From Obrimoposthia wandeli (Eukaryota), in NCBI GenBank assembly GCA_977020255.1, contig CDROCS010000953.1:124001-188000 (forward strand): DNA of 64,000 bases, written 5' to 3'. The position numbers and the translations under genes are program-made. Positions 1-48,529 of the stretch are shown one piece after another. A model generated the notes under the pieces. The model was given only the letters and a program-made list of their open reading frames with translations, ran no database searches and was not told the DNA's origin. Position 1 is the first letter of the stretch; each line of letters starts with the position of its first letter.

Positions 1-395
1 TATTTTACTGCTAAACCTGCTCAAATGTAAAAATGTTAGTCGTAAAGAAATTTTTATACTTCGTAAATATTTTTGTCGATACCTGCGAGTCTACACATAT
101 GTTTAATTGTCAGTAGGTACTGAAGTTATATGGTAGCCTTCAGTTGATAGTGAATCGTGCTGAACTATCAGTCGCCACTGATAAATTGGATTCTCGCTTG
201 TAATCGACTTAACTTTTCCTTGTAACTCGTCAAATAAGCCATTACATTCCTATTCATTTTTCAAGTGTTAACTGAACAACTTGAAGGTCGTATATTTTTT
301 GCACTTTAGAAAATTACGATTTGATTCTGTTTTAAATTTATAATAAAAAAAAAAATTTCAGATCAGTTACATATGTTGGGAAAATCTTAAATATA

Positions 396-3392
396 TGTTG
401 GGAAAATATTATAGCTATTTATTTTAAAAAAATAAAAATATAAATATATATATAAAAAATTTAAAAAAATAAAAAGTAAAAAAGAATTAATTAACTAAAG
501 AATTAATTAAGAACTTTCCTTAATTAGGGAAAAGTTCTATTTAGAAAATATGCACTTTGGCATTTTAATCTCAAGATAAATCAATCTCCGACGGGAAAAA
601 AGTCCGTTTCGCCCTGCCAGGCTCATCAGGGAGATGGCTTGTTATCTCTGACTTCGCGGTGGATTCCGCGAAGCCAGAGATAACAATAATAAAAAGCCAG
701 GGAAAAGAGGGAAAGATTCCCCCTTTCATGTGCCGACGAATATCGTCGACATATGATGTAGGTGTGCGCAAGTGCACATTTCAATACACACACTCACACA
801 GCAGACATCACTCAACTCATTCACTCTCACTACTCACTCTTACTACTCACTCAATCGCTCACTAAATCACTTATTCACCCACTCTCCCTACTCACTCACT
901 CCCCTATCCATTGTGCACATGTGTGTGAGTATGGGACAATAATAATTTAATAATTCTCTCTGCCAGATTTCTTACCGTGGTCTGAACAGCTGGTGTGTGT
1001 GCTGTTTTGGACTGGGCAACAGGCAGAGATTCTGCACAGGGGACTAGTCCAGTGTGTGTGTCCCCACAGCCGCAGCTGTCTCCCTCATTGCATATTGCGG
1101 TGTTTGTGTGCGCGGATGTGCCAATCTCGCGGTTCCTGCCGTCTCTCTATCTTATTTGACCGGTCCAACAATGTGACAATCTCTAGCGGTTGCTGTTTTC
1201 TTCTGCCCGCGTTGTATCAGTTGCTACCGACATTTGTGATTGCTATTGTTGGGGTTTCTATATGAAACTCTGTTCTAATATAGATCCTCTTTAGTGGAGG
1301 GCCCCAACGTGAGTTCTATAGAAGCAGGTCTTAGGGATGGTTGTGGCCTACTTAATGTTATGCTTGCCTGTCTCAATTTTTATCTGAAGGTTTTTTGTTG
1401 TGTCTTAATCTGAAGGGTTTAGAACGATGCTTTCTAGTTGTAGGAAATCGTTTATTTATTAACACACTAGACTAACACGAATCAAGTACGTATTTCTAAA
1501 AAGTTACAATAAAATTCCTAAGACTTCTGTAAGTCTCTACACAAGTGGGGATGATCCACGTATCGATTTTAATTTTAGGGTTGAAGGTTTAAAAAGTCTT
1601 TCTAGTATTTGGTGATTGCACAAAATCAAAACTTGCTCTAATTTATGTAAAAAAAAATTTCTAGTAAATTAACGATTACAAACTTGCTCTAAAACTTGCT
1701 CTAATTTATAGAGGCTTTCAATTCAAATTATATGATATCAAATTTTACGATACCAAATTTATATATTTATCAAATTGTACGATATCCAATTTATAAATTA
1801 CGGCTCAAAACTTTCAAAATCGACTTCCAAATTGCTATTTTAATCAAGTTATAAATTCTCCAAAATCGGCTTCACAATTACTTATTTAAAATCACGTTCT
1901 ACTTTTATTTCCGCGCTTGTTCCTTACCTGGCGTCCGGTCTATATTGGCCTCCTCAGATGTCGGTCGAATCCTTTACTCGGTACCCTTGACGTGCTGTGA
2001 TCGCACTGTACGGTTCTCGCTCTGGGTGATTCTGACGGTCTCTCCTCGCTTTTAGTTGTACTTCTTCTTTGTTTTCGCTTTTTGCTTCTCTTGATCTGGT
2101 TGCTCGGAATCTATCGCCGAGTTTTTCTTTAACAAATTGTCGCTCTTGATTGGGGTGCTCGGAATCTATCGCCGAGACTTACTTTAACAAATTGTCGCTC
2201 TTGATTTGGGTACTCGGAATCTATCGCCGAGACTTTCCTTAACAAATTTCCGCTCGGATTTAATCACGAGTCTTTCTGATTCCAACTTTCGGCAAAATAA
2301 TAACTGCTACTGCTAAATTTAATAATAATTTAGACTTATATAGTCTAAATTTCTCGTGGTGTGTCGCTGTCACTCGAATTTCCTTCCTTCTCTTCTTACG
2401 GTCCTGCAAGGCAATGATTAATCGATCTGATTACTAATCGACACTCACCCCACGAAACAGCTGTTGCTTCTATTTTCTTGTGTGTGTCTGCTAAATTCCA
2501 CTCTCGACCGAGATAAGCGACTGTGTGTCCGCGAGCAATAATCCTCTTGTCGGCTGGTGATTCACGATGGGCAGAGATTTCTGACAGTTGACCTTAATTG
2601 TGTGATGAATAATTCAATCAATTTCTAATATCACCTTACTTCCTGGGTGACTCACGATGATTCACTGTTGCTGCTGCGTCGCGAGATTTCTGACGTTTGA
2701 CCTTAATTCTTGTTGAATAATTCAGTCAATTGCTAATATTACCTTAATTCTTGTTCTTCTTCTATTTCTTAATTAATTTTTTGGTCCTTTTTAATTTAAC
2801 TTTAACTTCCTTATATACAACACATTGAACATGACCTTTCAAGGTCCTAAATATTTAATTTGCCTTTTACTCTCATCGATTTATTTTAACAATATAATTT
2901 TTTATTTAATTTATAACCTTACTTTCACGGATTTTATTTTGATATAAATTAGATTAATTATTTAAAATATATCAAATCCTAATCCTAACACTATAAATAG
3001 CAACCATGGAACAAATTATAGACACAAATAAATCAGAAATTGGAATTGTCAAATAAATCAGAAATTGGAATTGTCAAGTAAATCAGAAATTGGAATTGTC
3101 AAATTGAAACTTTATATATTTTGCACAAATATTATTATTGTTAAAGTAAATCAGAAATTGGAATTGTCAAATTGAAACTTTATATATTTTGCACAAATAT
3201 TATTATTGTTAAAGCAAATCAGAAATTGGAATTGTCAAATTGAAACTTTATATATTTTGCACAAATATTATTATTGTTAAAACAGATCAGAAATCAGAAA
3301 TTATCCTGTTGAAACTATAAATATTGAATAACCAAAATGTTTATGATTGAAATCTGAAATAAATATTATTTGTTGCTGTGGTCTTATTAACA
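396..3392 (+). repeat. 5' LTR of family A element (~1.25 kb), interrupted by a solo LTR at 1247..2990
   Basis: 396..1246 plus 2995..3392 aligns with the 3' LTR 15496..16733 and is nearly identical from ~625 onward. Confidence 0.95.
1247..2990. mobile_element. Solo LTR of a second family (B), inserted in the 5' LTR
   Basis: TGTTGGGG...CCTAACA termini, TSD CTAT (1243-1246 and 2991-2994); absent from the 3' LTR; internal ~50-bp tandem repeats. Confidence 0.92.
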
Positions 3393-3393
3393 T

Positions 3394-3407
3394 TGGTAAG
3401 CCCGACC
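3394..3407 (+). promoter_or_regulatory. Primer-binding-site-like sequence TGGTAAGCCCGACC
   Basis: Starts with TGG one base after the 5' LTR end; loosely resembles a tRNA-Trp-type PBS (TGGTGACCCCGAC); cognate tRNA not verified. Confidence 0.7.
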
Positions 3408-3464
3408 AAGGAACACGGTTAGTACTTAATTTTTCTTACTAATTTATTTCATATTTTATCTTAC

Positions 3465-3903
3465 ATAGTATCTTGTATTTTTGGACTATTTTGTCTTATA
3501 ATTAACTAGAATTTATAAACCTTAATTGTATTGTACTATAGTATCTTGTATTTTTGGACTATTTTGTCTTATAATTAACTAGAATTTATAAACCTTAATT
3601 GTATTGTACTATAGTATCTTGTATTTTTGGACTATTTTGTCTTATAATTAACTAGAATTTATAAACCCTAATTGTATTGTACTATAGTATCTTGTATTTT
3701 TGGACTATTTTGTCTTATAATTAACTAGAATTTATAAACCCTAATTGTATTGTACTATAGTATCTTGTATTTTTTGGACTATTTTGTCTTATATTTTAAC
3801 TAGAATTTATAAACCCTAATTGTATTGTACTATAGTATCTTGTACTTTTGGACTATTTTGTCTTATAGAACTTATAATTTACTAGAATTTATAAACCCTA
3901 ATT
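3465..3903 (+). repeat. 73-bp tandem array (~6 copies) in the element's 5' leader
   Basis: Unit ATAGTATCTTGTATTTTTGGAC... recurs at 3465, 3538, 3611, 3684, 3757 and 3832. Confidence 0.95.
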
Positions 3904-5187
3904 TTGTTCCAAAGTAAATATATAGATAATTTGGAGCATAATTTGTATCCTTCGTTTAATTTGATTTTAGTGAATATATTTAAAAAAATATATATATATA
4001 ATAATAGTTTTATTAAACATCTGTTTCATTTTGAGTAGCATTTTAATTTAACTGATAAATTTAGTTTTGAAAGGTTTTTCTTTTGTTTATATAAAACAAA
4101 TTTTGTTTATTTCAGGGGAAGTTATAGTATTTAGCACTTTGTTAATTTTTAAAACAGAAAGTATATTTTCTGTATTATATTTAAAATATATAGTGTTTTC
4201 ATACAATATTATACAATAAGTGTAGAATATAGTATAGGATTGGATATAGAAGACTGATTTTTCTAAGAATATTTAAAATTCTCGAATAAAATACGTTAGA
4301 CTAAATACTTTATTGAGTCCGATAGCAAATAAGTACTGTGAAGGAAAGTTGAAAATAACTTTAAGAAGGAGTTAATTGGTGCGTGAAATAGCTTAGAGGT
4401 AAAATTAACAAATTTTCATAGTTTTTTTTAAAGCAATAGTTTTTGATTCAAAATTATCCTGTGTTTGACTAAAATATATTAAATAATTTACCTTAACATA
4501 ATTTAAATTACTAAATTTACAATATTAGTTTTTTAAAAAAAAAAAATAATAATAATAAAAAAATTGCGATAGCAGATTTGACTTAAGGATATATATTGAT
4601 AGGTTAGAAATTTTTCTATTACTTTGGTTGGAATTACAGCTCAAATCACGGTAATCGATTATCATAAGGCCGAGCTGTATTTTGATCACAGAGCAGAGAT
4701 AATTCCTGACTGTTTTTAAAAATTCATTTATTTAAATAAAAAATTTTATTTAATCGTTTTCAATAAAACTAGACAACAATATATAAACACATAAATTAAT
4801 TTTCGACCCAGTACGCAGGATAATAGTGAACAATACACAAAGATTTCAAAATCTAAACGTAGTGCTAATCTTCACTGGAGACGCATTCAAACTAGATTAG
4901 TAAGAACTAACACAAGTGAAACACTACCACAGAGACCTAAATCCCAGATAAATTTTAGAACAAATAACGAATTTTTCCCTGAAACTCCGTTAGTTCACCA
5001 ACACACGGATCGCTTAATTTCAACCGACTCTGAAAACCAAAACCTAACATCAAATTCGGATACAGAAAGTTTATCCTTACCACAAACATCTGACTCAGAC
5101 AACTCGTCAGAAACATCAGAAACAGTGGCAGAACCAGTACCACCTAACATAGAAATAAATAACGAACAAATAAACGAAGTACCTCAA

Positions 5188-6642
5188 ATGGCAAATCATA
5201 GATTAAACATACCACTAGACGCATTTAATGGCGATAAATCATCTTTACCAGAATTCTTGAATAGATATGATTCTTTTGCTCAAGCATTCGAATGAACAGA
5301 CCTAGAAAAACTTAGAGTTTTTCCAGCATACCTAAAAGGCACTGCCCTAACCATTTATAGAGGACTAACAAATCTGCAAAAAGACACATGGGAACACTTA
5401 GTCCAACATTTCCAAAATATGGTTTTAGGAGCACAGGTCGACCAGAACTACTTAAATCAATTTAGACAACGAGAGCAACATGTAGGAGAACCCACAAATA
5501 TATTCGCAGTCGAATTACGACGACTTGCATTAAAATCTTTTCTCGAAATAGAAGAAGCACAAAGAGAACGATTACTTTTACATCAATTTTTACATGGATT
5601 AAATAACAAAATTAGAGATCACCCTGCATTACTAGAAGTAGAAAACTTTCAACAGGCTATAGGAAAAGCTCAGCTAGTAGAAGCAAGACTGAATATGATA
5701 CAGCAAACCGAAGTTTCAGCATTATCTTTTGAAAAAATAGAACGACCACAAACGCCACCAAACTACAACCAATCTAGGAATTTTAACCAAGATACTCAAT
5801 ATAATTTTCAAAATCCTCAACAATTTAGACCACCAATAAATAATTTTTATAGAAACCAGACAAATAGAAATTTTGCAAACTCACAATTTACACAAAGATC
5901 TTTTCAAAAATGCACAAATTGTGGACTCCAAAATCATACAATAGAAAATTGTCGAAAATTAAGTAACATAAAATTTTGCAGATTTTGCAAAAAAGACAAT
6001 CACACAATTGAAATTTGTAGAAAATTAATAAATAGACAGAGTAATAATACACTACCAAGGAATAATAACTTCAATAAACCAAACAATTTTGACAATAATC
6101 AAAATAGATATTTTAATAACGATACAAAATTTTGTAAGATTTGTAATATGAAAAATCACAACACCGATGACTGTGGAAAATTAAACACAATGATGAATCA
6201 ATTTGGAAACACAACAATAAAACAGCAACCACAAGTTCAAAAAACAGTACAATTCAGTACTCAAGATCGACAATATACCCCAAAAAACCCTATTCACACT
6301 ATAGAAAATACAGAAACAACTCCAAACACAGACGAATTAGCATTGTTAAAATTACGACTTAAAGAAATGGATAATCGCTACAGAGAAATACACCAACAAT
6401 GCCATAACAGTGAACCACAAACAGATAGAACAAACTTACAATCCGAATTTGGAGACATGTTTAGAGATGGTTGTTTGACATTACAAAAAAATAAATATAC
6501 AATCACAAAAACAAACCAAACTACTCAAACACAAGAAAAGAAAGTAAAACACAAGAAAAAACGTAAAACACTAAAAAATCTGAAAACTAAAATTTTTAAA
6601 AATACAAATAATCTTAATAAAATGATGAAAAAATTATGGAAA
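5188..6642 (+). pseudogene. gag: Gag (capsid-like region plus three CX2CX4HX4C zinc knuckles)
   Basis: Frame open from 4795, ATG at 5188; retrotransposon-gag-like helix pattern (EFLNRY...QAFE*TDLEKLRVFPAYLKGTA) with TGA at 5293 where Trp would fit; knuckles at 5911, 5977 and 6133. Confidence 0.88.
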
Positions 6643-8510
6643 ATTATTCATATAATATTAATAATATTTCTAATTATGAACATGATAAAACCAATTAATG
6701 CTTTAGAAGCATATGATTGTTCAAAATATAAAATTCAAAATAAATATTCTTTAATGGATTTACAGCAATGTGCAGACGCTGACCCAAATGAGGTAAAAAC
6801 CCAAAATACTAAGTTGTATCAAGTATATCAGGAAACAGATTTCATATATGAAGAAGTTTTCGAATGTAGATAACATGTAGAGACATTTATAACATATTGT
6901 GGACAACATAGTCACAATTCAATAGTAAAACCAGCATTAGGAAAAACACCAATAATAGTTGACGCTTTAAATTGTAAAGATGCTTTCGCAACAGGAGAAT
7001 TGAGAATAGATAGAGAAATTAAAGTCCGAGCGGCGAAAAATAAAATAATTCAACAAATGATATCAGTTGTAGGTACGAATTAATCTGATGGAGAATGTAC
7101 AACAGGAACTTATGTCGTAATGGGAGTTAAGCAAAGTGGTTTAGTAGTTATTAAAAATTTTGATGTCGAACTAAGAACTTTCAAAGCAACATTCGACCCT
7201 TCCACAAACACAATGGTAACAATGCCATTTTGTGAAGCAAACATAGGTCACTGTAACACAGGTTCTTCAATACTTTACTACAAAATAAAAATGGATCAAT
7301 GTAAATTAATACATTTAAAATCAGAAACTTTTCAAATAATTCAAGGAAAAAGATTTAGAGATGATCCGGAACTAGATCAACAAATTCCAAAGGACATACG
7401 CAAAAAATATAGAACTAGAAAAATACGAAAAACACCAACTCCAACTATATTAATGTCTATTGAACAAGGTTCAGGAATGCGATTTATTAAAAAGAAAGAG
7501 GAATCCCGATGTGGACACTCTGTTTATACAACTAATTATAAAGGAATATATTTAAGTAATGAAAAAATACATAATGCAAAAACGACACCAACTAAATTTG
7601 ATATTAAAAATTATGATTATTTTAACAATAAATTAGATTATTTTTATCACAAAGGACTAATGACAATAGAAGCAATATATAGAGAAACCATAATGAATGA
7701 TTGTAAATTAAATCAGGAAATATTAAAAAAGAAATTGGCAATTATTGCTACTTACCCAGAATTAATAACACCATTATTACCATTAGCTGACGGTACTTTT
7801 GGAAGAGTAATGGGAGAAGTGTTATACACTTATCAATGTAAAAAAGTAATAGTTAACATAAGAAATCACCAAAAATGTACAAAAGAATTACCAATTTCTT
7901 ACAAAAATAATTCATTATTTGTAGAACCAATCACTAGAATCATACTTTTTAACACATTTAGCATTAAAGAAATAAACTGCTCAAACATAATGGCACCTCA
8001 TTATCAAATTTCAAAAGATATTTGGATTTCACTTCCAAGAAGAGATATTGTCGCAGAACCACAAAAATTACAATTAACCACTCTCAGCAACGACATCAAT
8101 ATACAATCAGATAACGAATTAAACACAAAAGGAATTTATATACAGGAAGATATAGATAAGTTAAGAAAATAAATTTTATTTCCACAAATAAGATCCAGAA
8201 TTTTAACACAAATCATAGAAAGATCAGTACCTGACGGAATTAGCCGTCCCGATTACGATTTATTACTTTCTCCAAATCATTTTATAAAAGCCACTAAAAA
8301 CACTATGTCAAAAATATGGGGAAAATTTTTAATTTTTGGACAAGCATTTTCTGGATTAGTTGGAATATATGCTCTATTAATTTGCTTTAAGATTCTTCTA
8401 AGTCAAATTTTATCAACATATTATATTTATAAAGTTGGAGGATTAACATGGAAATTAATCTTAGGATGTTTCCCATTTTTGGCAAAATTCCTTATTTTTA
8501 ATCATCATCA
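6643..8510 (+). pseudogene. Chuvirus-like fusion glycoprotein (env) with internal signal peptide, in frame between Gag and protease
   Basis: Signal-like IIHIILIIFLIMNMIKPINA|LEAYDC; motifs AYDC, YCG-HS, DGEC, YFNNKLDY, DC-L...P, GEV--YQC--V-V-IR, C--ELPI, EP-TRI, GIY--ED---LR--ILFP and W-KF--FG--SG-VG-Y match the chuvirus-type G pattern as I recognise it; TAA stops at 6871, 7081 and 8170 do not change the frame. Confidence 0.8.
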
Positions 8511-8689
8511 AAACATAGTAAACACATTATCAAATGAAATGCGAGAAACAAATATACAAAAAATTACAAGTACCAAAGGAACAGAAAAAACGGAATCTTC
8601 ACAATATCCTGATTTAGAAAAATATATAGATAAAACAACTATACAAAAACCATCTGCACCAACAATATATACAATAAATCAAAAAGATA

Positions 8690-11600
8690 ACGACAAACGA
8701 CCATATGTAAAAGTAGAAATTAACGAATATAAACTTAAAGCTTTAATTGACACAGGATCAAGCGTAACAGTTTTAGACGAATCTTTCTTAAAAACACAAC
8801 AAAAATTACTTCTTCTTAAGGAAAATAGTCAAGTCACAGCAGCAAACGGTCAACCCGTAAATATAATAGGAAAATTAGACTGTCTTTTTAAAATAGGAAA
8901 TAAATTCATAAAAATACCTACAAGAATAATGAAAAATTGTCCTTGCCAAATGATCATAGGAATAGATACATTAAAAAAATTAGGAAATAATTTCCACTTT
9001 GATTTTGAAAAAAATCAAATAAAAGACATTTACAGACCTAACGCCAAAGATGAATACGAGTTAGAAATAAAAGGAGATATCATTCTCCAACCAAGAACAG
9101 AAACAATGTTACAACTAGAAACTAACATAATCACGGAAAAAGATGTATTATTTGAGCCTTATAAATATCAACAAGAAACCTTGAACTACGTTTTGCCAAA
9201 TATAATTTGTAAAATAAAGAACAACACAATACCAATCAGAATCCTAAATGCAGACATTAATGAAATTCATCTCAAGGAAGGAGTACGTCTTGGGAAAATA
9301 AGTGTTATTGAAAATATTGAATTAATAGATAATGAAAAAATAGAAGATAAATCTACGATAAATTTTAACGATATCAAATTAAATGATTATGAAAAATCAA
9401 AACTTAAAACTTTAACAGAAAAATATGATGTAATATTTGCTAAAAATGAATACGATTTAGGTCGAACAAATTTGATAAAACATAATCTTCCGTTAACAAC
9501 AAACACAGCAATAAAACAACGACCCTACCGAATTCCATATGCCTACAGAGATGAGGCTCAAAGACAAATAAAAGGAATGTTAGAAAATGAAATTGTTAGA
9601 AGAAGTTTTTCTGCATGGACATCATCTGTTGTTTTAGTAAAAAAGAAAGATGGTTCTTTGAGATTTTGCGTAGACTACAGAAAACTAAACGAAGTCACTC
9701 ACAAAGATACTTATCCACTGCCAAGAATTGATGAAATATTAGACAAACTAAAAAATGCACAAGTATTTACAACTTTAGATTTACAGAGTGGATACTGGCA
9801 AATAGAAATTGAGGAGTCAGATAAATATAAAACAGCTTTCTCAACAGGAGAAGGATTGTATGAATTCAATGTCTTACCATTTGGATTAACCGGAGCTCCA
9901 GCAACATTTCAGAGATGTATGAGCCATATTTTAATGGATGCAGATCACGTAATGGTATATATCGACGACATTCTTATTTTTTCAAAAAATTTGAAGAACA
10001 TTTAAAAGATTTAGAAAACGTATTCTTAAGATTACAGGTAGCAGGATTAAAACTAAAACCAAAGAAATGTGAATGGATAAAAGATAAAGTAAATTACTTA
10101 GGACATGCTGTATCAGCAAAAGGAATACAACCAGACGAGAGTAATGTAGAAAAGATTAAAAATTTTCCAATCCCAAAAACAGTAAAAAATATACAGGAAT
10201 TTTTAGGGCTTGCAGGATATTATCGTAGATTTATTAGAAATTTCGCACAAATAGCAATACCATTAAATAAACTTATTAAAAAAGATGAAAAATTTGAATG
10301 GGAAAAAGAACAACAAGAATCTTATGAATATTTAAAACAAAAATTAATCGAAAAACCTATACTTAGATATCCTAATTTTAATAACTCATTTTTAGTTATG
10401 ACTGACGCCAGTGGTTATGCGTTAGGAGCAGTTTTAGGACAACAGGAAAATAACGAAAAAGATCATGTGATAGCATATGCGAGCAGAGGTCTTAAAAAAC
10501 ATGAAAAGAATTACTCAACGATAGAAAGAGAATGCCTAGCTATTTGCTTCGCAATGGAACATTTTAAACATTACTTATTAGGTCGAAAGGTTTATGTTTA
10601 CACAGATCAAAGACCATTACAATGGCTTTTAAATCATAAGGATACAACATCTAGATTAATGAGATGGGCATTGATTTTACAAAAATATGATATTGAAATA
10701 AAATATCGAAAAGGAAAATCTAACGCTAATGCAGATTGTCTATCACGAATAAGAGAAGAAATAAACGAAATAACTGCAAACGACATCGAATTAAATCTTT
10801 TTACAATAATTCAAGCTAAATATGATGAAAAAGTAATTACTAAACTTCAAAGCAAAGATAATGAAATTCAGCAAATAACTAAATACATTAGCACAAACGA
10901 AGTACCAACAGATGAAAAATTAAGAAAACATTTAAAAATTCACGAATCACGATACAAATATAGTAATGAAATATTATATTATTTAAATGACAAAAATCTA
11001 TATTCACTAGTTATTCCTAAAGAAATTCAGTGTCAATTACTTCTTCAATATCATAATGGAGCCCTAGGAGGACATTTATCATCAAAAAAGACACATTCAC
11101 GATTAAATTTAAAATACTATTGGATTGACATGAAAGAAGATGTAAAAAATTGGTGTAAAACATGTGAAATATGTCTTAAACGGAAAAATACTTTACGTAC
11201 CACAAAAATACCTTTAAAACCAATACCTTATCCATCAGCCCCCATGGAAACTGTTGCCATGGATGTAATGGGACCATTACCTGAAACACCCCGAGGAAAT
11301 CGATATATAATAGTATTTTCTGATTATTTTACAAGATGGCCAGATACTTTTCCAACACATGATCATAAGGCTGAAACCATCGCAAAGGTTTTAGTCGAAA
11401 AAATTATTTTTACTTTCGGTGCACCCCGAAAATTATTTACCGACAAAGGTCCTGAATTTATAAATAATGTATTAGCGTCAATAGCTGAAATTTTTCACAT
11501 AAAAAAGATCAATACAACACCATATCACCCTCAAACTGACGGGTTAGTAGAAAGATTTAATAGAACCCTCGAAGATATGATGGCATCATACACAAACAAC

Positions 11601-12130
11601 AACCAAACAGATTGGGATTTACACATACCTCCATGCCTTTTTGCATATAGAACATCAGTACATGCATCCACAGGAGAAACACCTTTTTATCTTATGTTCC
11701 TCAGAGATCCTCAAATGCCTAATGACCTAACATTACTACAACCTACTACACAATATTTAGAAATACCTGAATATAAAATAGAAATTAGAGAAAGAATAAA
11801 ACTAGCATTCGAAAAAGCTAAACTATTTGTAAAAAACATACAAGAAAATTACAAAGAATATAATGATAGAAGAACTAAGCCATCAAATATAAAAAGCGGA
11901 AGTAAAGTGATGATTCACAATCCACAAATTAATGTAGGATTGTCTCACAAATTATCAAAACCATACAAAGGACCATATACAGTCATTAGTACCAACGGAA
12001 CCAACATAACAGCTAAACTAGATAATGAACCAAAATCAAAAGAAATAAGAGCACATATAAACAGATGTCGAGAAATACCTGAGGAGAATACAAAAGTAAA
12101 AAGTCACAAATATAACTTAAGATCAACTAA
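8690..12130 (+). pseudogene. pol: Pol: aspartic protease, RT, RNase H, integrase with GPY/F module; 1-nt deletion frameshift near 9990
   Basis: LIDTGS at 8743-8760; YIDD at 9958-9969; TDASGYALGAVL, TDQRPL and NANADCLSR (RNase H); H-H-C-C finger, AMDVMG, TDKGPEF and ERFNRTL (integrase); KPYKGPY; FSKN/FEEHL is broken by one missing T. Confidence 0.95.
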
Positions 12131-12245: not shown

Positions 12246-13423
12246 ATAACGATGTTATTGATAATATATTTTATAATAAAATATAACCTACTGAAAGTAA
12301 ACGCAACAAACATAAATGACAATCAATTAATCATACAACAACAAACAAATAAATACGACTCAACAACTCATCTCATAAAAAATTTTGGATTAATAACAAT
12401 AATACCTGAAATCACATCAATAAAGTTAAAAATTTCTCTTCTTACAAACAAAACAGGAAATGTGCAAATCACACAAACAGATAGAAAACAAAATATAATT
12501 ATTTCAGGAATAAAATCACAAAAATATACAATACCATTTTTAAGAACAGAAACACAATATAAAATAAGAATTAAGTCGAAATTAAAAAATATAACACTCT
12601 ATGAAAGAATTATAGAAACTCACATATACCTAGCATCAATATTAAAAACAACAGCAAATATATATCAAAACATAAAATAATAATAAAATGGGAATTTCAA
12701 CTAAAAATAGATGACTTAGATAAAGCCCTCATTAGAATTAGATATAGAAGACATAATGCTAATTTTTGGAAAGACTCAGAAAAACAATTAGAAAATACAC
12801 AAACTAAAACAAATTTAACCATAGAAAATATAAGATATCCAGAGAAAATAATAATGGACAATAGAGAATGCGTAATCACTAATAAACCAATAATGTACAG
12901 ACAATGGAGTCAAAAGTTTGAAAGTTATAAAAATCTAACAAAATTAACAATTTTAGGAAATAAGATATCCAAACTATATCAACCTACAATTTTTTGTGGT
13001 CGTTGGTCAGCAATAAAAATTAAGAAATATGTTAAAGAAATAACCACAAAACAAATGCTACATACCACAACATTTACATCAAAAATTTACAGAGTTACAA
13101 ATCAAGTTGAAATCACGGAGAGAATAAGAATTAAATTAAAATTAAAAACAACAGAAACAATATCCTATAAATCATTTAATGAAAGTTTAAAAATGCACTA
13201 TGGTAAACAAGAACATTCAAGGAATGAAGATAAAAAAGAACTTATAATAATAGTTATAGTAATCGAAATAATTACATTTTTAAATCAAATATCATGGAGA
13301 ATGTTAATTTTGAAACATACAAAAATGATAGAAACAAAACAACGAAAACACTTTTGTGGCCCCCCAGGCCCTTTTACTATTTATATTTTCCCAAGGATGA
13401 GAATTCTTCGGAATTATCCATAA
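12246..13423 (+). pseudogene. Putative type I membrane protein with FN3-like repeats, fused in frame after integrase (frameshift ~12625)
   Basis: Signal-like ITMLLIIYFIIKYNLLKVNA|T; FN3-like motifs KYTIPFLRTETQYKIRIKS and KIIIKWEF...IRIRYRRHNANFWK...TNLTIENI; hydrophobic LIIIVIVIEIITFL at ~13241; removing 2 nt from ATATA (12624-12628) joins the frames. Confidence 0.45.
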
Positions 13424-13660
13424 ATACTGTAATAGAAAATAGGAAAAGAAATATAACACAATAATCAATTTTTTTAAAAAATAAAACCATTTAAGTAACA
13501 AAAAATGTTAGTACTATTAAGTAAATCTAAATTAGTTAGGAAATAGAATAAAAATTTGATATATGTATATTTTAAAGAGGATTTAATGAAAATAATATTA
13601 AAATAAAATAACCAGGAAACGCATCCTGAAATTTAATAATGGTTATTTTTAGATATAAAA

Positions 13661-13957
13661 ATGAACAGATTGGCAAAAGTTTGTAAAAAATGCAAAAAAT
13701 TAGAGAAAAAGATTCGAGATGTTTCCAGACAGCATGACGACTTCTATATAAAGATCACAACTCAAAATAAATCACTGAAACAGTTAATAAAACAAAGTGT
13801 GGAAGAAAAATTGAATAATGATTTAACAATTGACGAACTAGAAGGGAGATTGACACATAGTTTTGGCAGAATAGACTATTTAATACAACAAACTTTAAGT
13901 CAACGATCAACTATAGCCTCATTAAGAAGACAAATGATGACCTTTGTTAAACTATAA
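13661..13957 (+). CDS. Accessory ORF, 98 aa, probably coiled-coil, unknown function
   Basis: Clean ATG-initiated ORF (AAAATG) inside the LTR boundaries, with heptad-like charged/hydrophobic pattern. Confidence 0.45.
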   Translation: MNRLAKVCKKCKKLEKKIRDVSRQHDDFYIKITTQNKSLKQLIKQSVEEKLNNDLTIDELEGRLTHSFGRIDYLIQQTLSQRSTIASLRRQMMTFVKL

Positions 13958-14117
13958 CCATACATCCTTCTTTTGTACAAATTGTCTAACTTTTATTAAT
14001 AGATTTATTTTCATGACAAATCCCACATACTGCATGGATAAGACTGATATTTTTATAACTTTAAGACTGTGAAATAATTATATTATTTTATTCAACTAAC
14101 AAATTGATTAAAGCAGA

Positions 14118-14381
14118 ATGGATAACAATCACCTGGATACGACTCCAGACCAGCTCACTCGGTTAGATCAAACAAAAAGCACAGCAAAAATAGAAAGAGG
14201 AAAAACGGAAAATATGCCAGAAAGGTGGTATTTAGCAAAATTCCTGTATCAAAAGATGCGTCAGTTTAGCATTGCATACTTTAGAAACAACGGAGGAAGA
14301 AAAATGTTTTCAAATCAAACATTTCTTCCTAATAAGTTAAAAATTACCACAGAGGAAAGAACAAGCGCACTTATATTTTAA
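14118..14381 (+). CDS. Accessory ORF, 87 aa, unknown function; possibly a frameshifted N-terminus of the exonuclease
   Basis: ATG-initiated ORF; overlaps the upstream open frame (from 14336) of the exonuclease ORF. Confidence 0.35.
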   Translation: MDNNHLDTTPDQLTRLDQTKSTAKIERGKTENMPERWYLAKFLYQKMRQFSIAYFRNNGGRKMFSNQTFLPNKLKITTEERTSALIF

Positions 14382-14401
14382 ATGAAAAAAGACCAACCCA
14401 T

Positions 14402-15286
14402 ATGGCTCTCAGCGAAATATTCCCCATTAATAATAGTGAAAAAATAGATATTCACGTGGCACTAGGAGTGGCCCATTTAAAAACCAAATCAGATAAGACC
14501 TTAAACTTTCTGATGATAGGAAATCATACCTACACCTTACAAGCAGCACAATTAGAAAATCAATATAGCATAAAAATAGGAAGAGGACCAAATCTATTAT
14601 TTATAGAAAAAATAAGAAAAGCAGAAGAACCTCAACAAATAGCCCTTTTTGAATTAAAAAACGCACAGAAACCAGCAATTTTATTCCTCGATTGCGAAAT
14701 GGTGATATCAGTAGATAAACAGCCAGTTTTAGCAAGTGTTTCTATTATAAATTACATAGGTAACGTAATTATAGATACACTGTGCGTAACTAGAGACAGA
14801 GTAAGAAATTACGTTACTAGAATAACTGGACTGTCAGATAGAAAGTTACAAGGATGTAGAGATGCTGATGAAGTAATTGAGGAAGTAAAAAACATTGTGT
14901 ATGGTAACATCATCGTAGGTGTGGGACTAACAAACGATTTAAAAGCTTTACGCCTACAGAAATGGATGTTATTCAACATTGTTGATTTAGGAATATCTAA
15001 AAGCATAAAATCAGAACTAAATCACAATCACCCAAATATTGGACTTGCCAACATGGTGCGGAAATACTTAAATATAGAAACACAAAAAGGAGTCCACACT
15101 AGCATGGAAGATGCAAATCACACCCGAAAAATTTTCATAATGAAGGAGGAAATGTTGAATAGAGAGTTTGATTTGACCGAGGTGATGAATCCACCATCTA
15201 GCGAGAACAACCCCAGTTCATCGTTCTCACATAAGACCGGAAACTCGGAGTCCGGTACACAAAACTCCCCGATTTTGTTGGATTAA
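14402..15286 (+). CDS. DEDDh 3'-5' exonuclease, REX4/ISG20-like, carried inside the retrotransposon
   Basis: ExoI LDCEMV, LASVSII, RNYVTRITGL, ExoII VG--LTNDLKAL and ExoIII QKGVHTSMEDA; all D-E-D-H-D catalytic positions present; uninterrupted 294-aa ORF. Confidence 0.9.
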   Translation: MALSEIFPINNSEKIDIHVALGVAHLKTKSDKTLNFLMIGNHTYTLQAAQLENQYSIKIGRGPNLLFIEKIRKAEEPQQIALFELKNAQKPAILFLDCEMVISVDKQPVLASVSIINYIGNVIIDTLCVTRDRVRNYVTRITGLSDRKLQGCRDADEVIEEVKNIVYGNIIVGVGLTNDLKALRLQKWMLFNIVDLGISKSIKSELNHNHPNIGLANMVRKYLNIETQKGVHTSMEDANHTRKIFIMKEEMLNREFDLTEVMNPPSSENNPSSSFSHKTGNSESGTQNSPILLD

Positions 15287-15495: not shown

Positions 15496-16733
15496 TGTTG
15501 GGAAAATATATTAGCTATTTGTTTAAAAAAGAAAAATAAAAATATAAAAATTAAAAAAAAAAAAAATAAAAGGTAAAAAGGAATTAATTAACTGAAAATT
15601 AATTGGGAACTTTCCTTAATTAGGGAAAAGTTCTGATTTTAAAATGTGCACTTTGGCATTTTGTCTAATCAATCTCCGACGGGAAAAAAGCCCGTTTCGC
15701 CCTTCCGGGCTCATCAGGGAGATGGCTTGTTATCTCTGACTTCGCGGTGGATTCCGCGAAGCCAGAGATAACAATAATAAAAAGCCAGGGAAAAGAGGGA
15801 AAGATTCCCCCTTTCATGTGCCGACGAATATCGTCGACATATGATGTAGGTGTGCGCAAGTGCACATTTCAATACACACACTCACACAGCAGACATCACT
15901 CAACTCATTCACTCTCACTACTCACTCTTACTACTCACTCAATCGCTCACTAAATCACTTATTCACCCACTCTCCCTACTCACTCACTCCCCTATCCATT
16001 GTGCACATGTGTGTGAGTATGGGACAATAATAATTTAATAATTCTCTCTGCCCAGATTTCTTACCGTGGTCTGAACAGCTGGTGTGTGTGCTGTTTTGGA
16101 CTGGGCAACAGGCAGAGATTCTGCACAGGGGACTAGTCCAGTGTGTGTGTCCCCACAGCCGCAGCTGTCTCCCTCATTGCATATTGCGGTGTTTGTGTGC
16201 GCGGATGTGCCAATCTCGCGGTCCCTGCCGTCTCTCTATCTTATTTGACCGGTCCAACAATGTGACAATCTCTAGCGGTTGCTGTTTTCTTCTGCCCGCG
16301 TTGTATCAGTTGCTACCGACATTTGTGATTGCTATAAATAGCAACCATGGAACAAATTATAGACACAAATAAATCAGAAATTGGAATTGTCAAATAAATC
16401 AGAAATTGGAATTGTCAAGTAAATCAGAAATTGGAATTGTCAAATTGAAACTTTATATATTTTGCACAAATATTATTATTGTTAAAGTAAATCAGAAATT
16501 GGAATTGTCAAATTGAAACTTTATATATTTTGCACAAATATTATTATTGTTAAAGCAAATCAGAAATTGGAATTGTCAAATTGAAACTTTATATATTTTG
16601 CACAAATATTATTATTGTTAAAACAGATCAGAAATCAGAAATTATCCTGTTGAAACTATAAATATTGAATAACCAAAATGTTTATGATTGAAATCTGAAA
16701 TAAATATTATTTGTTGCTGTGGTCTTATTAACA
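15496..16733 (+). repeat. 3' LTR of family A element
   Basis: Direct repeat of the 5' LTR, TG...CA, followed by the TSD TATA; contains 25-bp x3 and 68-bp x3 tandem units near its 3' end. Confidence 0.95.
16331..16340 (+). promoter_or_regulatory. Putative LTR TATA box (CTATAAATAG); counterpart at 2991..3000
   Basis: TATAAATA consensus followed ~35 nt later by AATAAA-containing repeats, as expected near the U3/R boundary. Confidence 0.5.
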
Positions 16734-16737
16734 TATA

Positions 16738-17668
16738 TATGAAAAAATAAAAGATATAAAATTAAGAAAAAATGGGAATTAATTAATTAATGAATTAATT
16801 AAGAACTTTCCTTAATTAGGGAAAAGTTCTGATTAAATAAAATATGCACTTTGGCTATTTGGTTTGGAGTGCTATTTCGCCCTGCTGGGCTCTTCAGAGA
16901 GATGGCTTGTCTTTGACTTCACTGTGGATTCCGCGAAGCCAGAGATAACAATGATAGACAGTGAAAAGAAGGAAAGATTTCTCCCTTTTAATATGCCGAC
17001 GAATATCGTCGACATGTGATGTTGGTGTGCGCAAGTGCACAATTCAACACACACACACAACAGAAATTGCATACACCTACTCACTCACTAGTACTCAAAT
17101 CTTTCTAACTCACTGCTCATTCACTATGGTTGGAGTATATGTCTGTATGTGTGTGAGATTAATATATTATTTATCTCTGCCCAGATACGCTGCCTCAGTG
17201 TGTTTACGTGCCGGGGATCGACTGGTGCAGAGACTAAATGCATGGATTTCCGGCCTGTTAATTGGCACTGATTTATTATTTTTTCTGTATAAAAACAAAT
17301 CGCCATTACAAAAATTCAGAACCAAAAAAATTATTACTAAATTAATCTGAATCGCAGTTATATTTAGAGACAGTATCGCAAATTATTATTTGAAAGCAGA
17401 ATTTACAATTTAAATTGATATACCAGTTATATTTGGAGACAGAATTTACAAAATTTACAATTTATATTTGAAAGCAAAATTTATAATTTATATTTGAAAG
17501 CAGAATTTACGATATAAATTTGAAAACAGAATTTACATTTATATTTGAAAAAATCGCAAATTATTATTTGAAAGCAGAATTTACAATTTAAATTGATATA
17601 CCAAGAATATATTATTTGTCCACAAAGTTTTTGTTATTGTTTAGGTAGATATACCCTAACTTAATACA
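16738..17668 (+). mobile_element. Older diverged family-A LTR, split by the full-length element (its first 22 nt are at 374..395)
   Basis: 374 TGTTGGGAAAAT start; 16738 onward shares the AGAACTTTCCTTAATTAGGGAAAAGTTCT palindrome and GGATTCCGCGAAGCCAGAGATAACAA; probable end TAATACA at 17668 with flanks CATA/TATA (1 mismatch). Confidence 0.75.
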
Positions 17669-18194: not shown

Positions 18195-19590
18195 TGTTAG
18201 TATTATAATTTTAAAATAAAATAAAAATAAAATTAAAAATTTTTAATTATTTCTTAATTAAGAAATAACGGGAGAAAATTTCCTTAATTAGGGAAATGTT
18301 ATTTCGGGTAAGTGAAATGCACTTTGGCATTTTGTAATCTGTTTTATTAGTTCAGTCCCCGACCGGCTTAACCGGTTTTGCCCTGTCGGGCTCGTCAGGG
18401 GAACGGCAGATTTATCTCTGGCTTCGTGGTGGGCAAAAATGCCCGCGAAATAAGAGATAAAAAAGGAGAAAATAAACAAAGGCACTTACCTGCACAAAGT
18501 CATATAAGTTGTGCAGCGCCGCCCTCCACTATCCTGATGTTAGCCACATCTATTTGATGTCATGCATCAATCCACAATGNNNNNNNNNNNNNNNNNNNNN
18601 NNNNNNNNNNNNNNNNNNNNNNNNNNNNNNNNNNNNNNNNNNNNNNNNNNNNNNNNNNNNNNNNNNNNNNNNNNNNNNNNNNNNNNNNNNNNNNNNNNNN
18701 NNNNNNNNNNNNNNNNNNNNNNNNNNNNNNNNNNNNNNNNNNNNNNNNNNNNNNNNNNNNNNNNNNNNNNNNNNNNNNNNNNNNNNNNNNNNNNNNNNNN
18801 NNNNNNNNNNNNNNNNNNNNNNNNNNNNNNNNNNNNNNNNNNNNNNNNNNNNNNNNNNNNNNNNNNNNNNNNNNNNNNNNNNNNNNNNNNNNNNNNNNNN
18901 NNNNNNNNNNNNNNNNNNNNNNNNNNNNNNNNNNNNNNNNNNNNNNNNNNNNNNNNNNNNNNNNNNNNNNNNNNNNNNNNNNNNNNNNNNNNNNNNNNNN
19001 NNNNNNNNNNNNNNNNNNNNNNNNNNNNNNNNNNNNNNNNNNNNNNNNNNNNNNNNNNNNNNNNNNNNNNNNNNNNNNNNNNNNNNNNNNNNNNNNNNNN
19101 NNNNNNNNNNNNNNNNNNNNNNNNNNNNNNNNNNNNNNNNNNNNNNNNNNNNNNNNNNNNNNNNNNNNNNNNNNNNNNNNNNNNNNNNNNNNNNNNNNNN
19201 NNNTTATCGACAAATGTTGTCTCTCTCCCTCTTTGCTACTGCGGCGCATTCAATACACCTGATACTGCATGCCAGGTTTTCGTGAACCAGCTCCTCTGTC
19301 GCCGTGTCGGATCTCCTCTCTTACCTTCAGATGCCACTAGCAGCTGGGACAACTTCATAGCATGACAGCATGTGCAGTCTCTCCAGCTGCAACAACATAT
19401 CTCTCTCAATCTGTGTCTCTATAACCACAGTTTCTGCACATCGCCCTCCAACTGTCCGGATGAAAATTGATTTTTATGTGTTTGTGTCTATCTGTATTTA
19501 TTAGTATATATGCAGAGATGCATATAAAAATAAGGACACAAGAATTATACAGGACAAAAAATATAATAATCTGATCAGAAAAATTGATCT
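18195..19590 (+). mobile_element. Diverged family-A LTR spanning the assembly gap; 3' end uncertain
   Basis: TGTTAG start, TTTCCTTAATTAGGGAAA palindrome, ATGCACTTTGGCATTTT and hairpin variant shared with LTR A. Confidence 0.6.
18580..19203. other. Assembly gap (624 N)
   Basis: Run of N. Confidence 1.
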
Positions 19591-29330: not shown

Positions 29331-30247
29331 CAATGTATAGTAAATAGAAGTAAAAATTGAAATTAAGACCCCCAAATACTTTTCATCGTATAGAGATTGC
29401 GGAATCCGATTTTTTTGCAATTGTATTCTAAATACAAATCGAGATTCATATCGTAGTATCACTAGATGGATGTAGAAGGAATAAAGCCAAGTATTCACTG
29501 ATTGCTGCAATTATAAATTGTTATATTTTCTAGGATATTTGAGTTAATTTTTTTGACACAGAAATTAAAAAGGCGTTAAATATTACATATGATCACAAAA
29601 CTTTCTATTTACTGTCAAAATAACACAAAATGAATGTATTCAAATAGTCAAAATATAGATTTTATTTGCATAAACATTTTGATTGTATCCTTAATAGCGT
29701 TACTATTTCCCGGTAATCTATATGACAATACATGTATGCTTTATAAATTAGAAGCTGCAAATCATGAACTTTTTCTTGATGAAATTTGCATGTGATTAGC
29801 GTGATTGTTCTGAACAAATCATCATTCATTAATTTCATCATTTATGACCCACCTTATCTTTGTCTCACTTCTCAGGAGACCTCCACGACACTAATTTCCC
29901 ACCACTGTGCATGCTCATGACCCTTATCAGCTTGCTGAGTGTTATCCCAGCTGACTTCACTATCAAAATATTGCTTAGTTAAGACTTGATTCGGTCCCAC
30001 GAAAGATAGACTACGCTGAGGAAATATATATACAGGGATTCACTGTCATCATATGGCAACTCACACCTGCAGCTATATTGTATACAGAGGCTACCTCCCT
30101 GATGACAGGGTTACTTACTTTATACTTATATGGGAATATGCTTTAGATATTATGAGATACTCTTATTAGTCAAATAACTATTCCTACAAAATATATGTAT
30201 CTGGAAATATGAAGAATAATATTGGAAATTTGGTATTGATAGAAAGT

Positions 30248-33200
30248 TAGTAGGTAGAAGGATGGAGTCTAGACCACTTAAACTGAATATATGCCAAAAT
30301 AAGTTATGTTTACAAGTCAATTTAATGTACAAAACATTAAACTTATGATTAATAAGTAAACTACTTGAAGTTTTTGTTGAAAATTATATTAAAGTAATAA
30401 CTTACAACATATTAAATTGAAAATATGCAAAAATATATTATGTTTACAAGTCAATGCATTGTACAAAACATTAATATTATGATTATTAAGTAAACTACTT
30501 GAAGTTTTTGTTGAAAATTATATTAAAGTAATAACTTACAACATATTAAATTGAAAATATGCAAAAATATATTATGTTTACAAGTCAATGTATTGTACAA
30601 AACATTAATATTATGATTATTAAGTAAACTACTTGAAGTTTTTGTTGAAAATTATATTAAAGTAATAACTTACAACATATTAAAGTGAATATATGCATAA
30701 ATATATTATGCTTACAAGTAAATTTATTGTACAAAACATTAAACTTATGATTAATAAGTAAACTACTTGAAGTTTTTGTTGTAAATTATATTAAAGTAAT
30801 AACTTACAGCATATTAAAGTGAATATATGCATAAATATATTATGCTTACAAGTAAATTTATTGTACAAAACATTAAACTTATGATTAATAAGTAAACTAC
30901 TTGAAGTTTTTGTTGAAAATTATATTAAAGTAATAACTTACAACATATTAAATTGAAAATATGCAAAAAATATATTATGTTTACAAGTCAATGCATTGTA
31001 CAAAACATTAATATTATGATTATTAAGTAAACTACTTGAAGTTTTTGTTGAAAATTATATTAAAGTAATAACTTACAACATATTAAAGTGAATATATGCA
31101 ACAACAAATAAATATTGTAGTTTACAAGTAAATTACTTGAAGTTTTTGTTGTAAATTATATTAAAGTAATAACTTACAACATATTAAATTGAAAATATGC
31201 ATAAATATATTATGTTTACAAGTAAATTTATAGTAAACGACAGTGAAATATCAATTACTTTTTATGTAATGGAATATTACAGTAATAATTTACAATATAT
31301 TAAACTAAATATATGCAAAATAATATTATGTTTACAAGTCAATTTTCGAATGTCTAGTAAACAAAACTAAATAACACGAAAGAACATTTACTATTTGAAA
31401 GAATACATTTAATAGTACTTTATATTTGAAATTTATATTATATGCAGTCGGTGGGGTACAGCTACTAACTTTATAATTAAAATATTTTTATAGTTTAATG
31501 TTAAAATCACTTGATAAAAACCACAATAATGTGGTAAAGAAATATTATTTAACATATAAAATGAATTTTTGAAGAAATAAATTGAATATTCATATTATAT
31601 TAATAAGACAATGGCAAAAATATCAAGTAATTAAAAAAAAATTGTTTGTTGAGTTAATTTACTAAATTTGTATATATAAATACAGTTTCGAATAGTTAAA
31701 AAGAGAATAATGATAATTTCAATTATATTTCCGAATATAATTGTATAATCAAGTTATTTAAAAATAAAGAATTTAAATTTAACTAATTATTTTAAAATAT
31801 TTCAATTAAGGAATTTTATCAAACGAGATAAGACATTTTAATTATTTAATTGCATGAGTGTATATGAAAGATTAACTTTAACATGGAGGTAAACTATGTG
31901 AAAATATGAAAGTTCACATCTTAATTAATTGATAGTATTAATTTAATAATTAGCTAGTACTCACTTGCAGTTTTAGATTCACTTGCAAAGATTCTTACTT
32001 GTATTTGCATTCATACTTGTATTCACTTGCATGCATACTTGCATTCATTTACATTCATTCTAACTCTCATTTATTCAAATTATAACTCAAATTCATTGAT
32101 ATTTTTATTAATATTCATTCATACTTGACATTCGTACTTGCAATAGTACTCTTTCTTACTTGTACTTGTAGCTGCATTAAATCATACTTGCATTCATTTA
32201 CATTCAATCTAACTGTAATTTATTCAAACTATCATTCAATTACATTCAAATACATTAATATTTGACTAATTTTCATTCATACCTTCAAACTTAGTGTTGT
32301 TTTCTATTAATCTTGCCATAACTTAGTCGTTCTAACTTTTAACATACTTCAGTTTCACTGATTTTTTATAGTTGCTTACTTGTTATTAATCTAACTGTAA
32401 CTTAACATAACTTTATTCATACGAAAACTCTATTTTAATTTACTTATAGTCTAAAAATTCACTCGCATTCAATCAAACTATCGACACTCTTATTTTTTTT
32501 TCAATTACATTCACTTGCTAAGACTCTTGTTGTATTTGCATTCACTTGCATTCATACTTGCTTTCATTTACATTCAATCTAACTATAATTTATTCAACGA
32601 AAACTCTATTTTAATTTACTTATAGTCTAAATTACACTGGAATTCAATCAAACTATCGACACTCTTATTTTTATTTTTTTCAATTACATTCACTTGCTAA
32701 GACTCTTACTTGTATTGACATTCATACTAGCATTCACTTGCATTCATTTACATTCAATCTAACTCTCATTTATTCAAACTATCATTCAAATATTCAAATA
32801 AATTAATATTTTACTAATTTTCATTCATAGCGTTAAAAACTTAGTGTTGTTGTTTTTTTTCCCGCTGTAACTTAGTCGTTAAATCGGAAAGAATGTATAA
32901 AGAATGGATTTTCTTACTTTGTAAATGATATTCACTTAAGTTTGAAGATGATATTATGAAATTACATAATAAATATATTTAATTTTGTATTAGTTTCTGA
33001 CTTCTTTCTTATTTTATTTTTATTTTAATATATAATTTAAGTTATTTAAAGAAATTTTATCATAATTCTTTAGATGTGTAAGCCTAGAAAAAAAAATATT
33101 GATCTAAATTTTCACATAGAATAGTGTGTGTTAAAAACCACATTCCTTAACTGATAAGAGTGAACTTTATACTAAATTTTCACATAGAATAGTGTGTGTG

Positions 33201-46654: not shown

Positions 46655-47893
46655 TGTTGAGGCTAGGAAACTAAAAAATAAATAAGTTATTTATAGTGAG
46701 AGTTAACCTTAAAATAATGAAGGTTAATAAAATAAATAAAATAATTAATTGTATAAAATTAGAAGTTAGAAATAAATTAAAAAAAGAGTGAGGTTAGAAT
46801 ATAGTTTAAAATATTTGTATATAAGTTGGATAAAAAGTGTAGAAGGACAAAGAATAAAAATTGTGATAAATAATAATTGCGAAAAAAGAAGATAAGTCCC
46901 GGAGAATCCAAAATTATTATTGGAATTGTTGATATTACGGAAAAAAGATAAAGTTAATTTATCGGTGAGAAGTTACACCTGTTTCCTATTGAGGATCGAT
47001 TGCGTAAGGAAAATCCATTAAGATCGCATTAGAAAAACGAAATCCATTTAGTATTACATTAGGAAAAAACAAAAATCCATTAGGATAGCATCCAGCCCGC
47101 AAAGCACTCAGGGGTTCCTCCCAGCGATCCGTGGTGAGAGGAATTTCATTTATAAGTGAGTGATATTTAAAATATTCACAGAAGAATTGTTTCGACAAGG
47201 AAGTCAGGGATCGACAATCGGATTGGAATCAAAAGGACGAAAAAACAAGAATTGAATTTGACGGTAATCGGGATATTACACGGATCGACACAGGAATCTT
47301 CAACAAGGACATAAATGCAAACAGAGACGGATTGTTGTCAGGGATTCAAATCAAGGCAAGATACCTAAATTGAACTGGTGAGAAAGAGCATAATTGCAGT
47401 AATTATATTTGAAAGTAAATAACCGAATCGAAATTAGGTATATTTGTTAATTTAATTATATCGAATTTAAGTATATTGTCAATTGAATTATCTCGAAATT
47501 AAGAATATTTGTCAAGTAAAAAACACGTTGAATTATTTTTGAGCTCAACGACAAAACGACGTTATTGAATTAGTTGACAATAATAACAGATAGTAAAGAA
47601 TTAAGTATATGTTATTAAGACACAGGGAATCTTGAAGAGTGATAATAGCATGATGCGTATAAAAATATACATCACACTACAATAATTTTGAGCATACTAG
47701 CTATTTTGTGAACACAACTCTTTGAACACACCACAAAACAATAAGACAAAAAATTTTCAAATTGAGACAAAGATTAAGTAGGACACGAAGAGGTAGGCCA
47801 CATCCATCTGTAAGCCCTATCGCTACAGAACTCACGTTGGGGCCTCCATACGAGGATTTAATTAAATAAGAGTTTCAATTAGAAACCCCAACA
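46655..47893. mobile_element. Solo LTR, family B related (opposite orientation to the 1247 copy)
   Basis: TGTTGAGG...AGAAACCCCAACA; TSD AAAG on both sides; conserved AGAACTCACGTTGGGGCCTCC. Confidence 0.88.
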
Positions 47894-48529
47894 AAAGTAT
47901 AAAAAACATGAAATTTCATGCAGGATTAAATCAAAGCAGTTGGCGTTTCTATTCTGTTCGCGTCAGATGAACTTGCAAAAAATAACCGCATAAGAGCTAT
48001 CGATAGATATCATTTTCTATTTTATTTCTACGTTTGGAGTGCAAGCATTTGAGTCGAGATCTTTACAGTAATATGAGTATATTGTCTATTACTAAAAGTT
48101 TTGATACCATTGTAAGCCTTTAAGCAATCTGAAAGTATAATCGAGCCCGGTGCGATTGAACTGCGCATGTATTCGTGTACTGTTTTCTTGGAACTGTAAA
48201 AAGAAAAACCTCACGATTTTAACGGTATATGCCACCAAAAACACGTTGTTCTTCAACCATTCTCTATTGCATTTCCAACGTGTAAGTACAGATTCAACAT
48301 TCTATATGTGCATATTTTAACCTCAAATTATCACGGGATTGTTCAAAATCTTCTCTACACATACCTCACGTAGACAATTGTTCCAATTTACAGTTGTACA
48401 GTAGGGTGCATCAAAAAAATTAAAGTTCTGAAATTGATCTGTCTGGTGATTAATTTTGTTTCACTTGGTGACAGATATTTTGTATTAAAATATTTTCATA
48501 ATTGAAGAATATTTAGAGGTCCCCCCATG

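Follow-up and report, generated by a model that had tools for sequence, protein, structure and literature searches.

The planarian Burro elements carry an env gene in frame between gag and pol, the product of which matches mononegaviral glycoproteins, and their gag has three CCHC knuckles (Arkhipova and Yushenova 2019, PMC6431247). A chuvirus-like glycoprotein of mosquito BEL/Pao elements also adjoins gypsy POL in 114 arthropod elements (Chary and Hayashi, eLife 2026, PMC13524379). In the same catalogue, the elements of nematodes, bryozoans and flatworms have the gene order GAG-ENV-POL; nine flatworm elements are listed, and copy numbers reach 45 for Smed_1 and 215 for Smed_2. Finally, ORF3 of Vesta and Juno from bdelloid rotifers encodes an accessory exonuclease of the DEDD superfamily at the 3' side of an LTR retrotransposon (Rodriguez et al. 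2017, PMC5408684).

The window analysed here, a stretch of 64,000 nucleotides from Obrimoposthia wandeli, contains a relative of these elements. The similarity of its glycoprotein and a low GC content point to a flatworm host, likely a planarian. Positions 6625-8517 are very probably env in a defective member of a high-copy, Burro-like Ty3/gypsy GAG-ENV-POL family, and inheritance within a retroelement lineage explains it better than a fresh capture from a chuvirus. The combination of this fusogen with a gypsy polymerase, seen as new in a preliminary description of the locus, is already in print (PMC6431247; PMC13524379), as is the in-frame layout; only the extra tail genes may be new.

Like Burro and GYPSM1, as these giant gypsy elements are presented in the Burro section of PMC6431247, the element has a single long ORF, a three-knuckle gag, an in-frame env, accessory ORFs and very many copies. 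In contrast, it measures about 14.6 kb and encodes about 2,890 amino acids, against more than 30 kb and 4,873 amino acids for Burro. None of the BIR, BCL2, MATH and ankyrin domains of Burro sensu stricto is matched in it, and that section makes no mention of an FN3-like tail or a DEDDh exonuclease, the two candidate additions discussed below. The nearest RT (75% identity) belongs to P0157, an unnamed polyprotein of 4,844 amino acids with ankyrin.

With the flatworm GAG-ENV-POL errantiviruses (configuration C1a, HSV/gB-type ENV, PMC13524379), the element shares a Ty3/gypsy POL, a chuvirus-like env with a predicted gB fold, the gene order and its multi-copy state. It differs from each of the six Smed rows compared. 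By eye, one ungapped stretch of 66 residues of the glycoprotein (hereafter G) has 32 identities to S. mediterranea errantivirus 3, where the six Smed sequences of the supplement share 27-64% among themselves in the same context. Also by eye, eight cysteines of G are colinear with those of S. mediterranea errantivirus 1 in the C1a pattern of domains I-II. The main text of that paper is free of the words 'exonuclease', 'fibronectin', 'accessory' and 'polyprotein'. The mosquito element Anakin (Dezordi et al. 2020, PMC7642597) likewise has a glycoprotein of the same family inside an LTR element, but its polymerase is BEL/Pao, whereas here it is gypsy. The Vesta and Juno exonucleases are of the DEDDy type and mostly come without env (PMC5408684); the one found here is DEDDh, ISG20/SDN1-like, and stands beside a full class III env.

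The element is complete, with an LTR at each end. Between the LTRs come gag, G, protease, RT, RNase H and integrase, followed by an extension of 400 residues and two separate ORFs. Its features are as follows.

396..3392, plus strand: 5' LTR, TG...CA, about 1.25 kb, split by an insertion at 1247-2990
1247..2990, plus strand: insertion in the 5' LTR, 1.74 kb, TG...CA ends, CTAT duplication
3394..3411, plus strand: primer-binding-site-like sequence, starting TGG one base past the LTR
4795..6624, plus strand: gag portion of the polyprotein frame, with CCHC knuckles at 5911, 5977 and 6133 and one in-frame stop at 5293
6625..8517, plus strand: chuvirus/HSV-gB-type glycoprotein, 631 codons, in-frame stops at 6871, 7081 and 8170
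8692..8985, plus strand: aspartyl protease in frame with G (PF09668 E 7e-9, PF13975 E 8e-9)
9490..10110, plus strand: reverse transcriptase (YIDD) of Ty3/gypsy type (PF00078), frame broken near 9990 in this copy
10377..10688, plus strand: RNase H (PF17917 E 1e-39)
11013..12070, plus strand: integrase with HHCC, core and C-terminal part (PF17921, PF00665)
12252..13423, plus strand: in-frame extension after integrase, with a signal-like segment, a beta-rich, FN3-like region (as a lead) and, near 13241-13312, a transmembrane segment; this copy has a frame break near 12650
13640..13957, plus strand: small ORF of coiled-coil character, with sub-threshold coiled-coil-type Pfam matches only
14112..15286, plus strand: ORF with a DEDDh 3'-5' exonuclease at its end, the motifs lying at 14687, 14918 and 15095 (PF00929 E 4e-7)
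15496..16733, plus strand: 3' LTR, TG...CA ends

The two pieces of the 5' LTR, 396-1246 and 2991-3393, are 95.5% and 100% identical to 15496-16734. The differences amount to 4 of 646 and 0 of 403 positions in the main parts and to 15 of 190 in the first 200 bases; judged by this divergence, the insertion is young. TATA found outside both LTRs is a probable 4-bp target duplication, weak as such in an AT-rich site. No canonical polypurine tract was seen upstream of the 3' LTR. The sequence that splits the 5' LTR is likely a solo LTR from a different family, and pieces 72-80% similar to its start are dispersed at 47669-47904, 50794-51047 and 61483-61718.

The element inserted into an older LTR, at its 5' end; this LTR is from a related family (window 375-395 and 16734-17200; 76% identity), and a yet more diverged copy lies near 18201-18432. 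Elsewhere in the genome this older LTR type forms tandem arrays with a spacing of about 4.85 kb (G000:C843:356671-386229, C217:474474-479770). One array unit contains the C-terminal half of the exonuclease without gag, G or pol, and is possibly a non-autonomous derivative that retained the exonuclease. Both LTRs of the element hold a 48-nt near-palindrome (639-686, 15727-15774), retained in the older LTR at 16907-16951. The 5' leader contains 73-nt tandem repeats (3453-3903); a distinct 134-nt tandem array is found downstream, at 30144-31339.

G is placed between gag and protease and in frame with both, whereas the usual place of env is after pol. The preliminary description had recognised the G motifs and the gypsy RT but had missed this position. 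In 12 copies, the window copy included, the frame from G to protease is kept in 11 and that from gag to G in seven. We reject a programmed frameshift at the gag-to-G junction, as the frame-changing indels near it in the other five copies are at five different positions. The longest open frame among 150 scored matches, 2,889 amino acids, corresponds to the span from 4795 to about 13460; frames of 2,910 and 2,911 amino acids occur among 56 scored matches. Together with the continuity of the frame in the copies, the 2,889-residue frame indicates that the family encodes one polyprotein of about 2,890 codons. Its gag region is homologous to the N-termini of the G polyproteins P0021, P0024 and P0013 (E 1e-16 to 5e-8), while no Pfam gag family matches 4795..6624.

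At least 150 near-identical copies, counted as scored matches to part of G with 98-100% identity, are present in the genome. The window copy itself is defective, with four stops (5293, 6871, 7081 and 8170) and at least three frame breaks. Its stops in G are nearly private: a stop at the same codon occurs in 0 of 38, 0 of 40 and 2 of 39 other copies, respectively. Only seven of 38 sampled copies have G free of stops and frameshifts. In the copies, frameshifts are more numerous than stops. Of 160 single-base indels, 96 lie at homopolymer runs, where the background is 10.7%; given this excess, some of the breaks are probably sequencing errors.

The motif series that first drew attention to G is borne out: of the 12 spellings tested, 11 occur in order within a single frame, AYDC at 6709 being the first and W.KF..FG at 8317 the last. 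The motif given as GEV--YQC does occur, at 7813, but with three spacer residues instead of two. Read through with X at the stops, G matches the Pfam family PF24664 (Monjiviricetes_fusion) with E 2.1e-87 and no other Pfam family up to E 1; each of the three stop-bounded pieces located 3' of the first stop matches PF24664 separately. The hydropathy profile has a signal-like segment at residues 3-29 and C-terminal hydrophobic segments at 568-625, with the ectodomain in between; three N-glycosylation sequons are present in G.

A full HMMER search against 1.84 billion representatives returned 1,306 relatives of G at E<=0.001; a word-indexed protein search gave one among 6,427 candidates. The best matches are long unnamed proteins with 30-49% identity. 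Among the 14 long top matches that were scanned, ten hold G followed by protease and/or RT in the same chain (E<=0.001). Stand-alone G proteins are about 25-30% identical to that of the window. Ten of them were looked up: one is the glycoprotein of Tacheng tick virus 4, two are insect-genome proteins and the others are unnamed or hypothetical. Tacheng tick virus 4, a chuvirus, matches with E 6e-45, and with the PF24664 profile this supports the chuvirus type proposed at the outset. By sequence, no relative of G was found among solved structures.

A structure model of G, built from 123 sequences, has a pLDDT of 89.7. Compared with viral models by Foldseek, it retrieves Tacheng tick virus 4 G first (E 1.3e-39); against solved structures, herpes gB chains fill all 35 rows listed, with a best E of 2.4e-13 and TM-scores of 0.2-0.4. 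The class III fusogen fold, which had been presumed from the motifs, is thus well supported for the predicted model. G shares its sequence family with the chuvirus protein and its predicted class III fold with gB as well, yet is only about 23-30% identical to the former and about 10% to the latter, and differs from both in being embedded in a retroelement polyprotein.

We compared 40 further copies of the element, of which 32-39 rows per region passed the coverage filter. For G, the count excludes 7600-8169, the stretch by whose similarity the copies were picked; P values are nominal throughout, as sites are linked. Outside that stretch, 24 of 40 variants shared by at least two copies are synonymous, where 10.8 are expected (nominal P 1e-5). 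Variants found in single copies of G behave neutrally (31 of 142 synonymous, 34.8 expected). Shared variants are similarly biased in PR-RT (22 of 31 against 8.8 expected), RH-INT (18 of 28 against 8.5) and the exonuclease (16 of 19 against 5.3), but not in the post-integrase extension (17 of 61 against 16.1; Fisher p 0.002 versus G). As the shared variants are mostly synonymous, the replicating lineages preserved the protein sequence of G, which is under purifying selection among copies; the extension is either relaxed or diversifying. Pairwise dN/dS against a copy diverged by about 5% is 0.51 for G, 0.25 for RH-INT and 0.17 for the exonuclease; for the extension it is 0.48/0.70, not significant, and an off-frame control there is also low (0.19), so this comparison carries little weight.

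Purifying selection on G makes infectivity plausible for the family; the copy in the window is broken. The strongest competing account is that the family is an ordinary intracellular retrotransposon, in which G was kept for a non-infectious role such as membrane anchoring of the polyprotein, intracellular assembly or particle-free passage from cell to cell. G is fused within an obligatory polyprotein frame, so any stop in it would be disfavoured regardless of its function; G showed no furin site, and we know of no particles for GAG-ENV-POL elements of this kind. However, what is purged across the ectodomain goes beyond stops and includes amino-acid changes; in the alignment, the cysteine set is conserved as far as the viral G proteins, and the model retains the whole class III architecture. 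On balance we regard such a role as rather unlikely.

The preliminary description had taken the locus for an independent capture of the fusogen. A tree of G was calculated from 62 of 125 domains, namely all long polyproteins and the 48 first-listed others; it results from a quick search without bootstrap, is midpoint-rooted (in effect unrooted) and has biased composition. In it, the window G groups with 13 G proteins of retroelement type, namely a second family from the same genome and 12 more rows, of which 11 are long polyproteins. All are on one side of a long branch with SH-aLRT 100, opposite the chuvirus G; the tree gives neither a date nor a direction for the original capture. The RTs of seven G-bearing polyproteins are 52-75% identical to that of the window. 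RT and G share their closest relatives, which is simply explained by inheritance along a gag-G-pol lineage.

That a gypsy family made its own, lineage-specific capture of a chuvirus G gene appears very improbable in this light. In its favour, the best named viral relative of G, both by sequence and by fold, is the chuvirus protein; moreover, GAG-ENV-POL elements are not monophyletic by POL according to PMC13524379, and a 2023 study reports no clear gypsy capture for arthropods (PMC10084718). Nevertheless, retroelement polyproteins are closer to G than stand-alone proteins are, their G domains fall on one side of the long branch, their RTs are also the closest to that of the window, and the second family of the same genome has the identical gag-G-PR order. 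Independent capture is thus left unsupported.

The second family (L093/L094, G000:C621:188000-207999) is diverged, with 41% identity in G and 50% in RH-INT. It encodes G, protease, BIR (E 2e-14), RING, a second protease, RT, RH and INT, then a long frame in which a dual-specificity phosphatase is matched (E 3e-39) alongside several hydrophobic segments; a RING-like ORF is also present. Cargo varies from family to family. Several relatives (P0003, P0008, P0010, P0018 and P0157) carry at least two aspartyl protease domains behind G, and P0008 and P0157 an additional protease-like stretch after integrase. P0011, a G-RT-RH-INT polyprotein of the G clade, is on record as hypothetical and assigned to a Flavobacteriaceae MAG, probably through eukaryotic contamination of the assembly.

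The RT motifs LPRIDE, LDLQSGYWQ and YIDD are all present, and the best solved relative out of 195 matches is Ty3 RT (4OL8, E 1.8e-47). PF17917 and PF17919 are matched in the pol region, and the order PR-RT-RH-INT is that of Ty3/gypsy (Metaviridae). By these sequence features the element is Ty3/gypsy, as first described. No Pao-type RT or Peptidase_A17 is matched by Pfam in the element; BEL/Pao RTs from eight loci of the same genome align to the window RT over 61-65 residues only (28-30% identity, 25-29 bits) and are separated from the G-polyprotein RTs by a branch that has a support of 100. An alternative would be a chuviral endogenous element that landed by chance in a gypsy copy, conceivable since in arthropods pieces of LTR elements often flank those of chuviral G (PMC10084718), or a BEL/Pao element misread as gypsy. 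It is refuted by the frame that G shares with gag and protease, by the presence of G in at least 150 copies and by this RT comparison, and we give it practically no credence.

Downstream of integrase, the extension may be a second predicted membrane protein fused to the polyprotein, possibly undescribed. Five diverged relatives run well beyond integrase, and by eye three of them (P0008, P0011 and P0157) share its type of tail, in which the motif L-x-x-x-T-x-Y-x-I comes with a signal-like segment and a membrane anchor. Such a tail is absent from P0020 and from the second family of the same genome. For two tails 26% identical, the nearest Atlas clusters are FN3, at 0.89 and 0.91; neither comparison reaches 170 shared features, and the recognition value is low for the second. 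A local FN3 profile gives 7.2 bits on the extension, equalled by 5 of 1000 and 1 of 500 shuffles. Ranked against 500 shuffles, the tails of the window family and of P0011 score above 499, that of P0008 above 487 and that of P0157 above only 398; tail-to-tail shuffle tests took in the hydrophobic ends. The profile-profile FN3 probability of the extension is 12.6%. Pfam fn3 does not match it up to E 10, nor does it match an alignment of four tails, for which PDB matches stay at chance level. The word-indexed search found no relative of the extension among 4,506 longer proteins, and a single-sequence model has a pLDDT of 32.5, too low for use. The FN3-like character is hence a lead only. No FN3 domain in such elements came up in the literature searches.

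Of the two separate ORFs, the first is about 108 bases shorter in the window than in other copies. The second occupies two frames here and is a single 389-aa ORF in another copy. The catalytic motifs D-E, D and H-D together with the family match place it in the DEDDh exonucleases (ISG20/REX/SDN), with activity as a prediction; its only solved relatives at E<=0.01 are ISG20, ISG20L2 and SDN1. This ISG20-like ORF, which is under purifying selection, is possibly an undescribed cargo.

We now propose a pathway for the element. One genomic RNA would be translated to the polyprotein of about 2,890 residues; an internal signal sequence would thread G into the ER, Gag and Pol staying cytosolic, for which one membrane pass after G would be needed. 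Signal peptidase and the protease of the element would release Gag, G and Pol. Polyproteins of flaviviruses and alphaviruses are the model for these processing steps. On budding particles, trimeric G would fuse them with neighbouring cells or with germ or stem cells, and RT and integrase would make new insertions in the cells so entered. Through the other internal signal sequence, behind integrase, a further type I membrane protein would be made. The DEDDh exonuclease, encoded separately, would have RNA as its substrate and most likely counter the RNA surveillance of the host.

By analogy with herpes gB and its partners, one may speculate that the clade carries a two-glycoprotein entry system in one polyprotein: a class III fusogen and, behind integrase, an FN3-like type I membrane protein that changes fast and would serve in attachment or as an immune decoy, with the ISG20/SDN-like exonuclease directed against small-RNA defence. 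We consider this doubtful at present; if true, these elements would be true retrovirus-like pathogens of flatworm stem cells, accessory genes included.

As a headline, the locus adds one more family to a published class, and its value there is confirmatory. Its own contribution is at the population level: across dozens of copies, purifying selection on G is as strong as on RT and integrase. This supports a working role of the gB-type env in recent spread, which catalogues had inferred only from intact frames and copy number. Should the post-integrase membrane protein prove to be a conserved partner of the fusogen, it would provide a concrete handle on the choice of target cells in regenerating animals.
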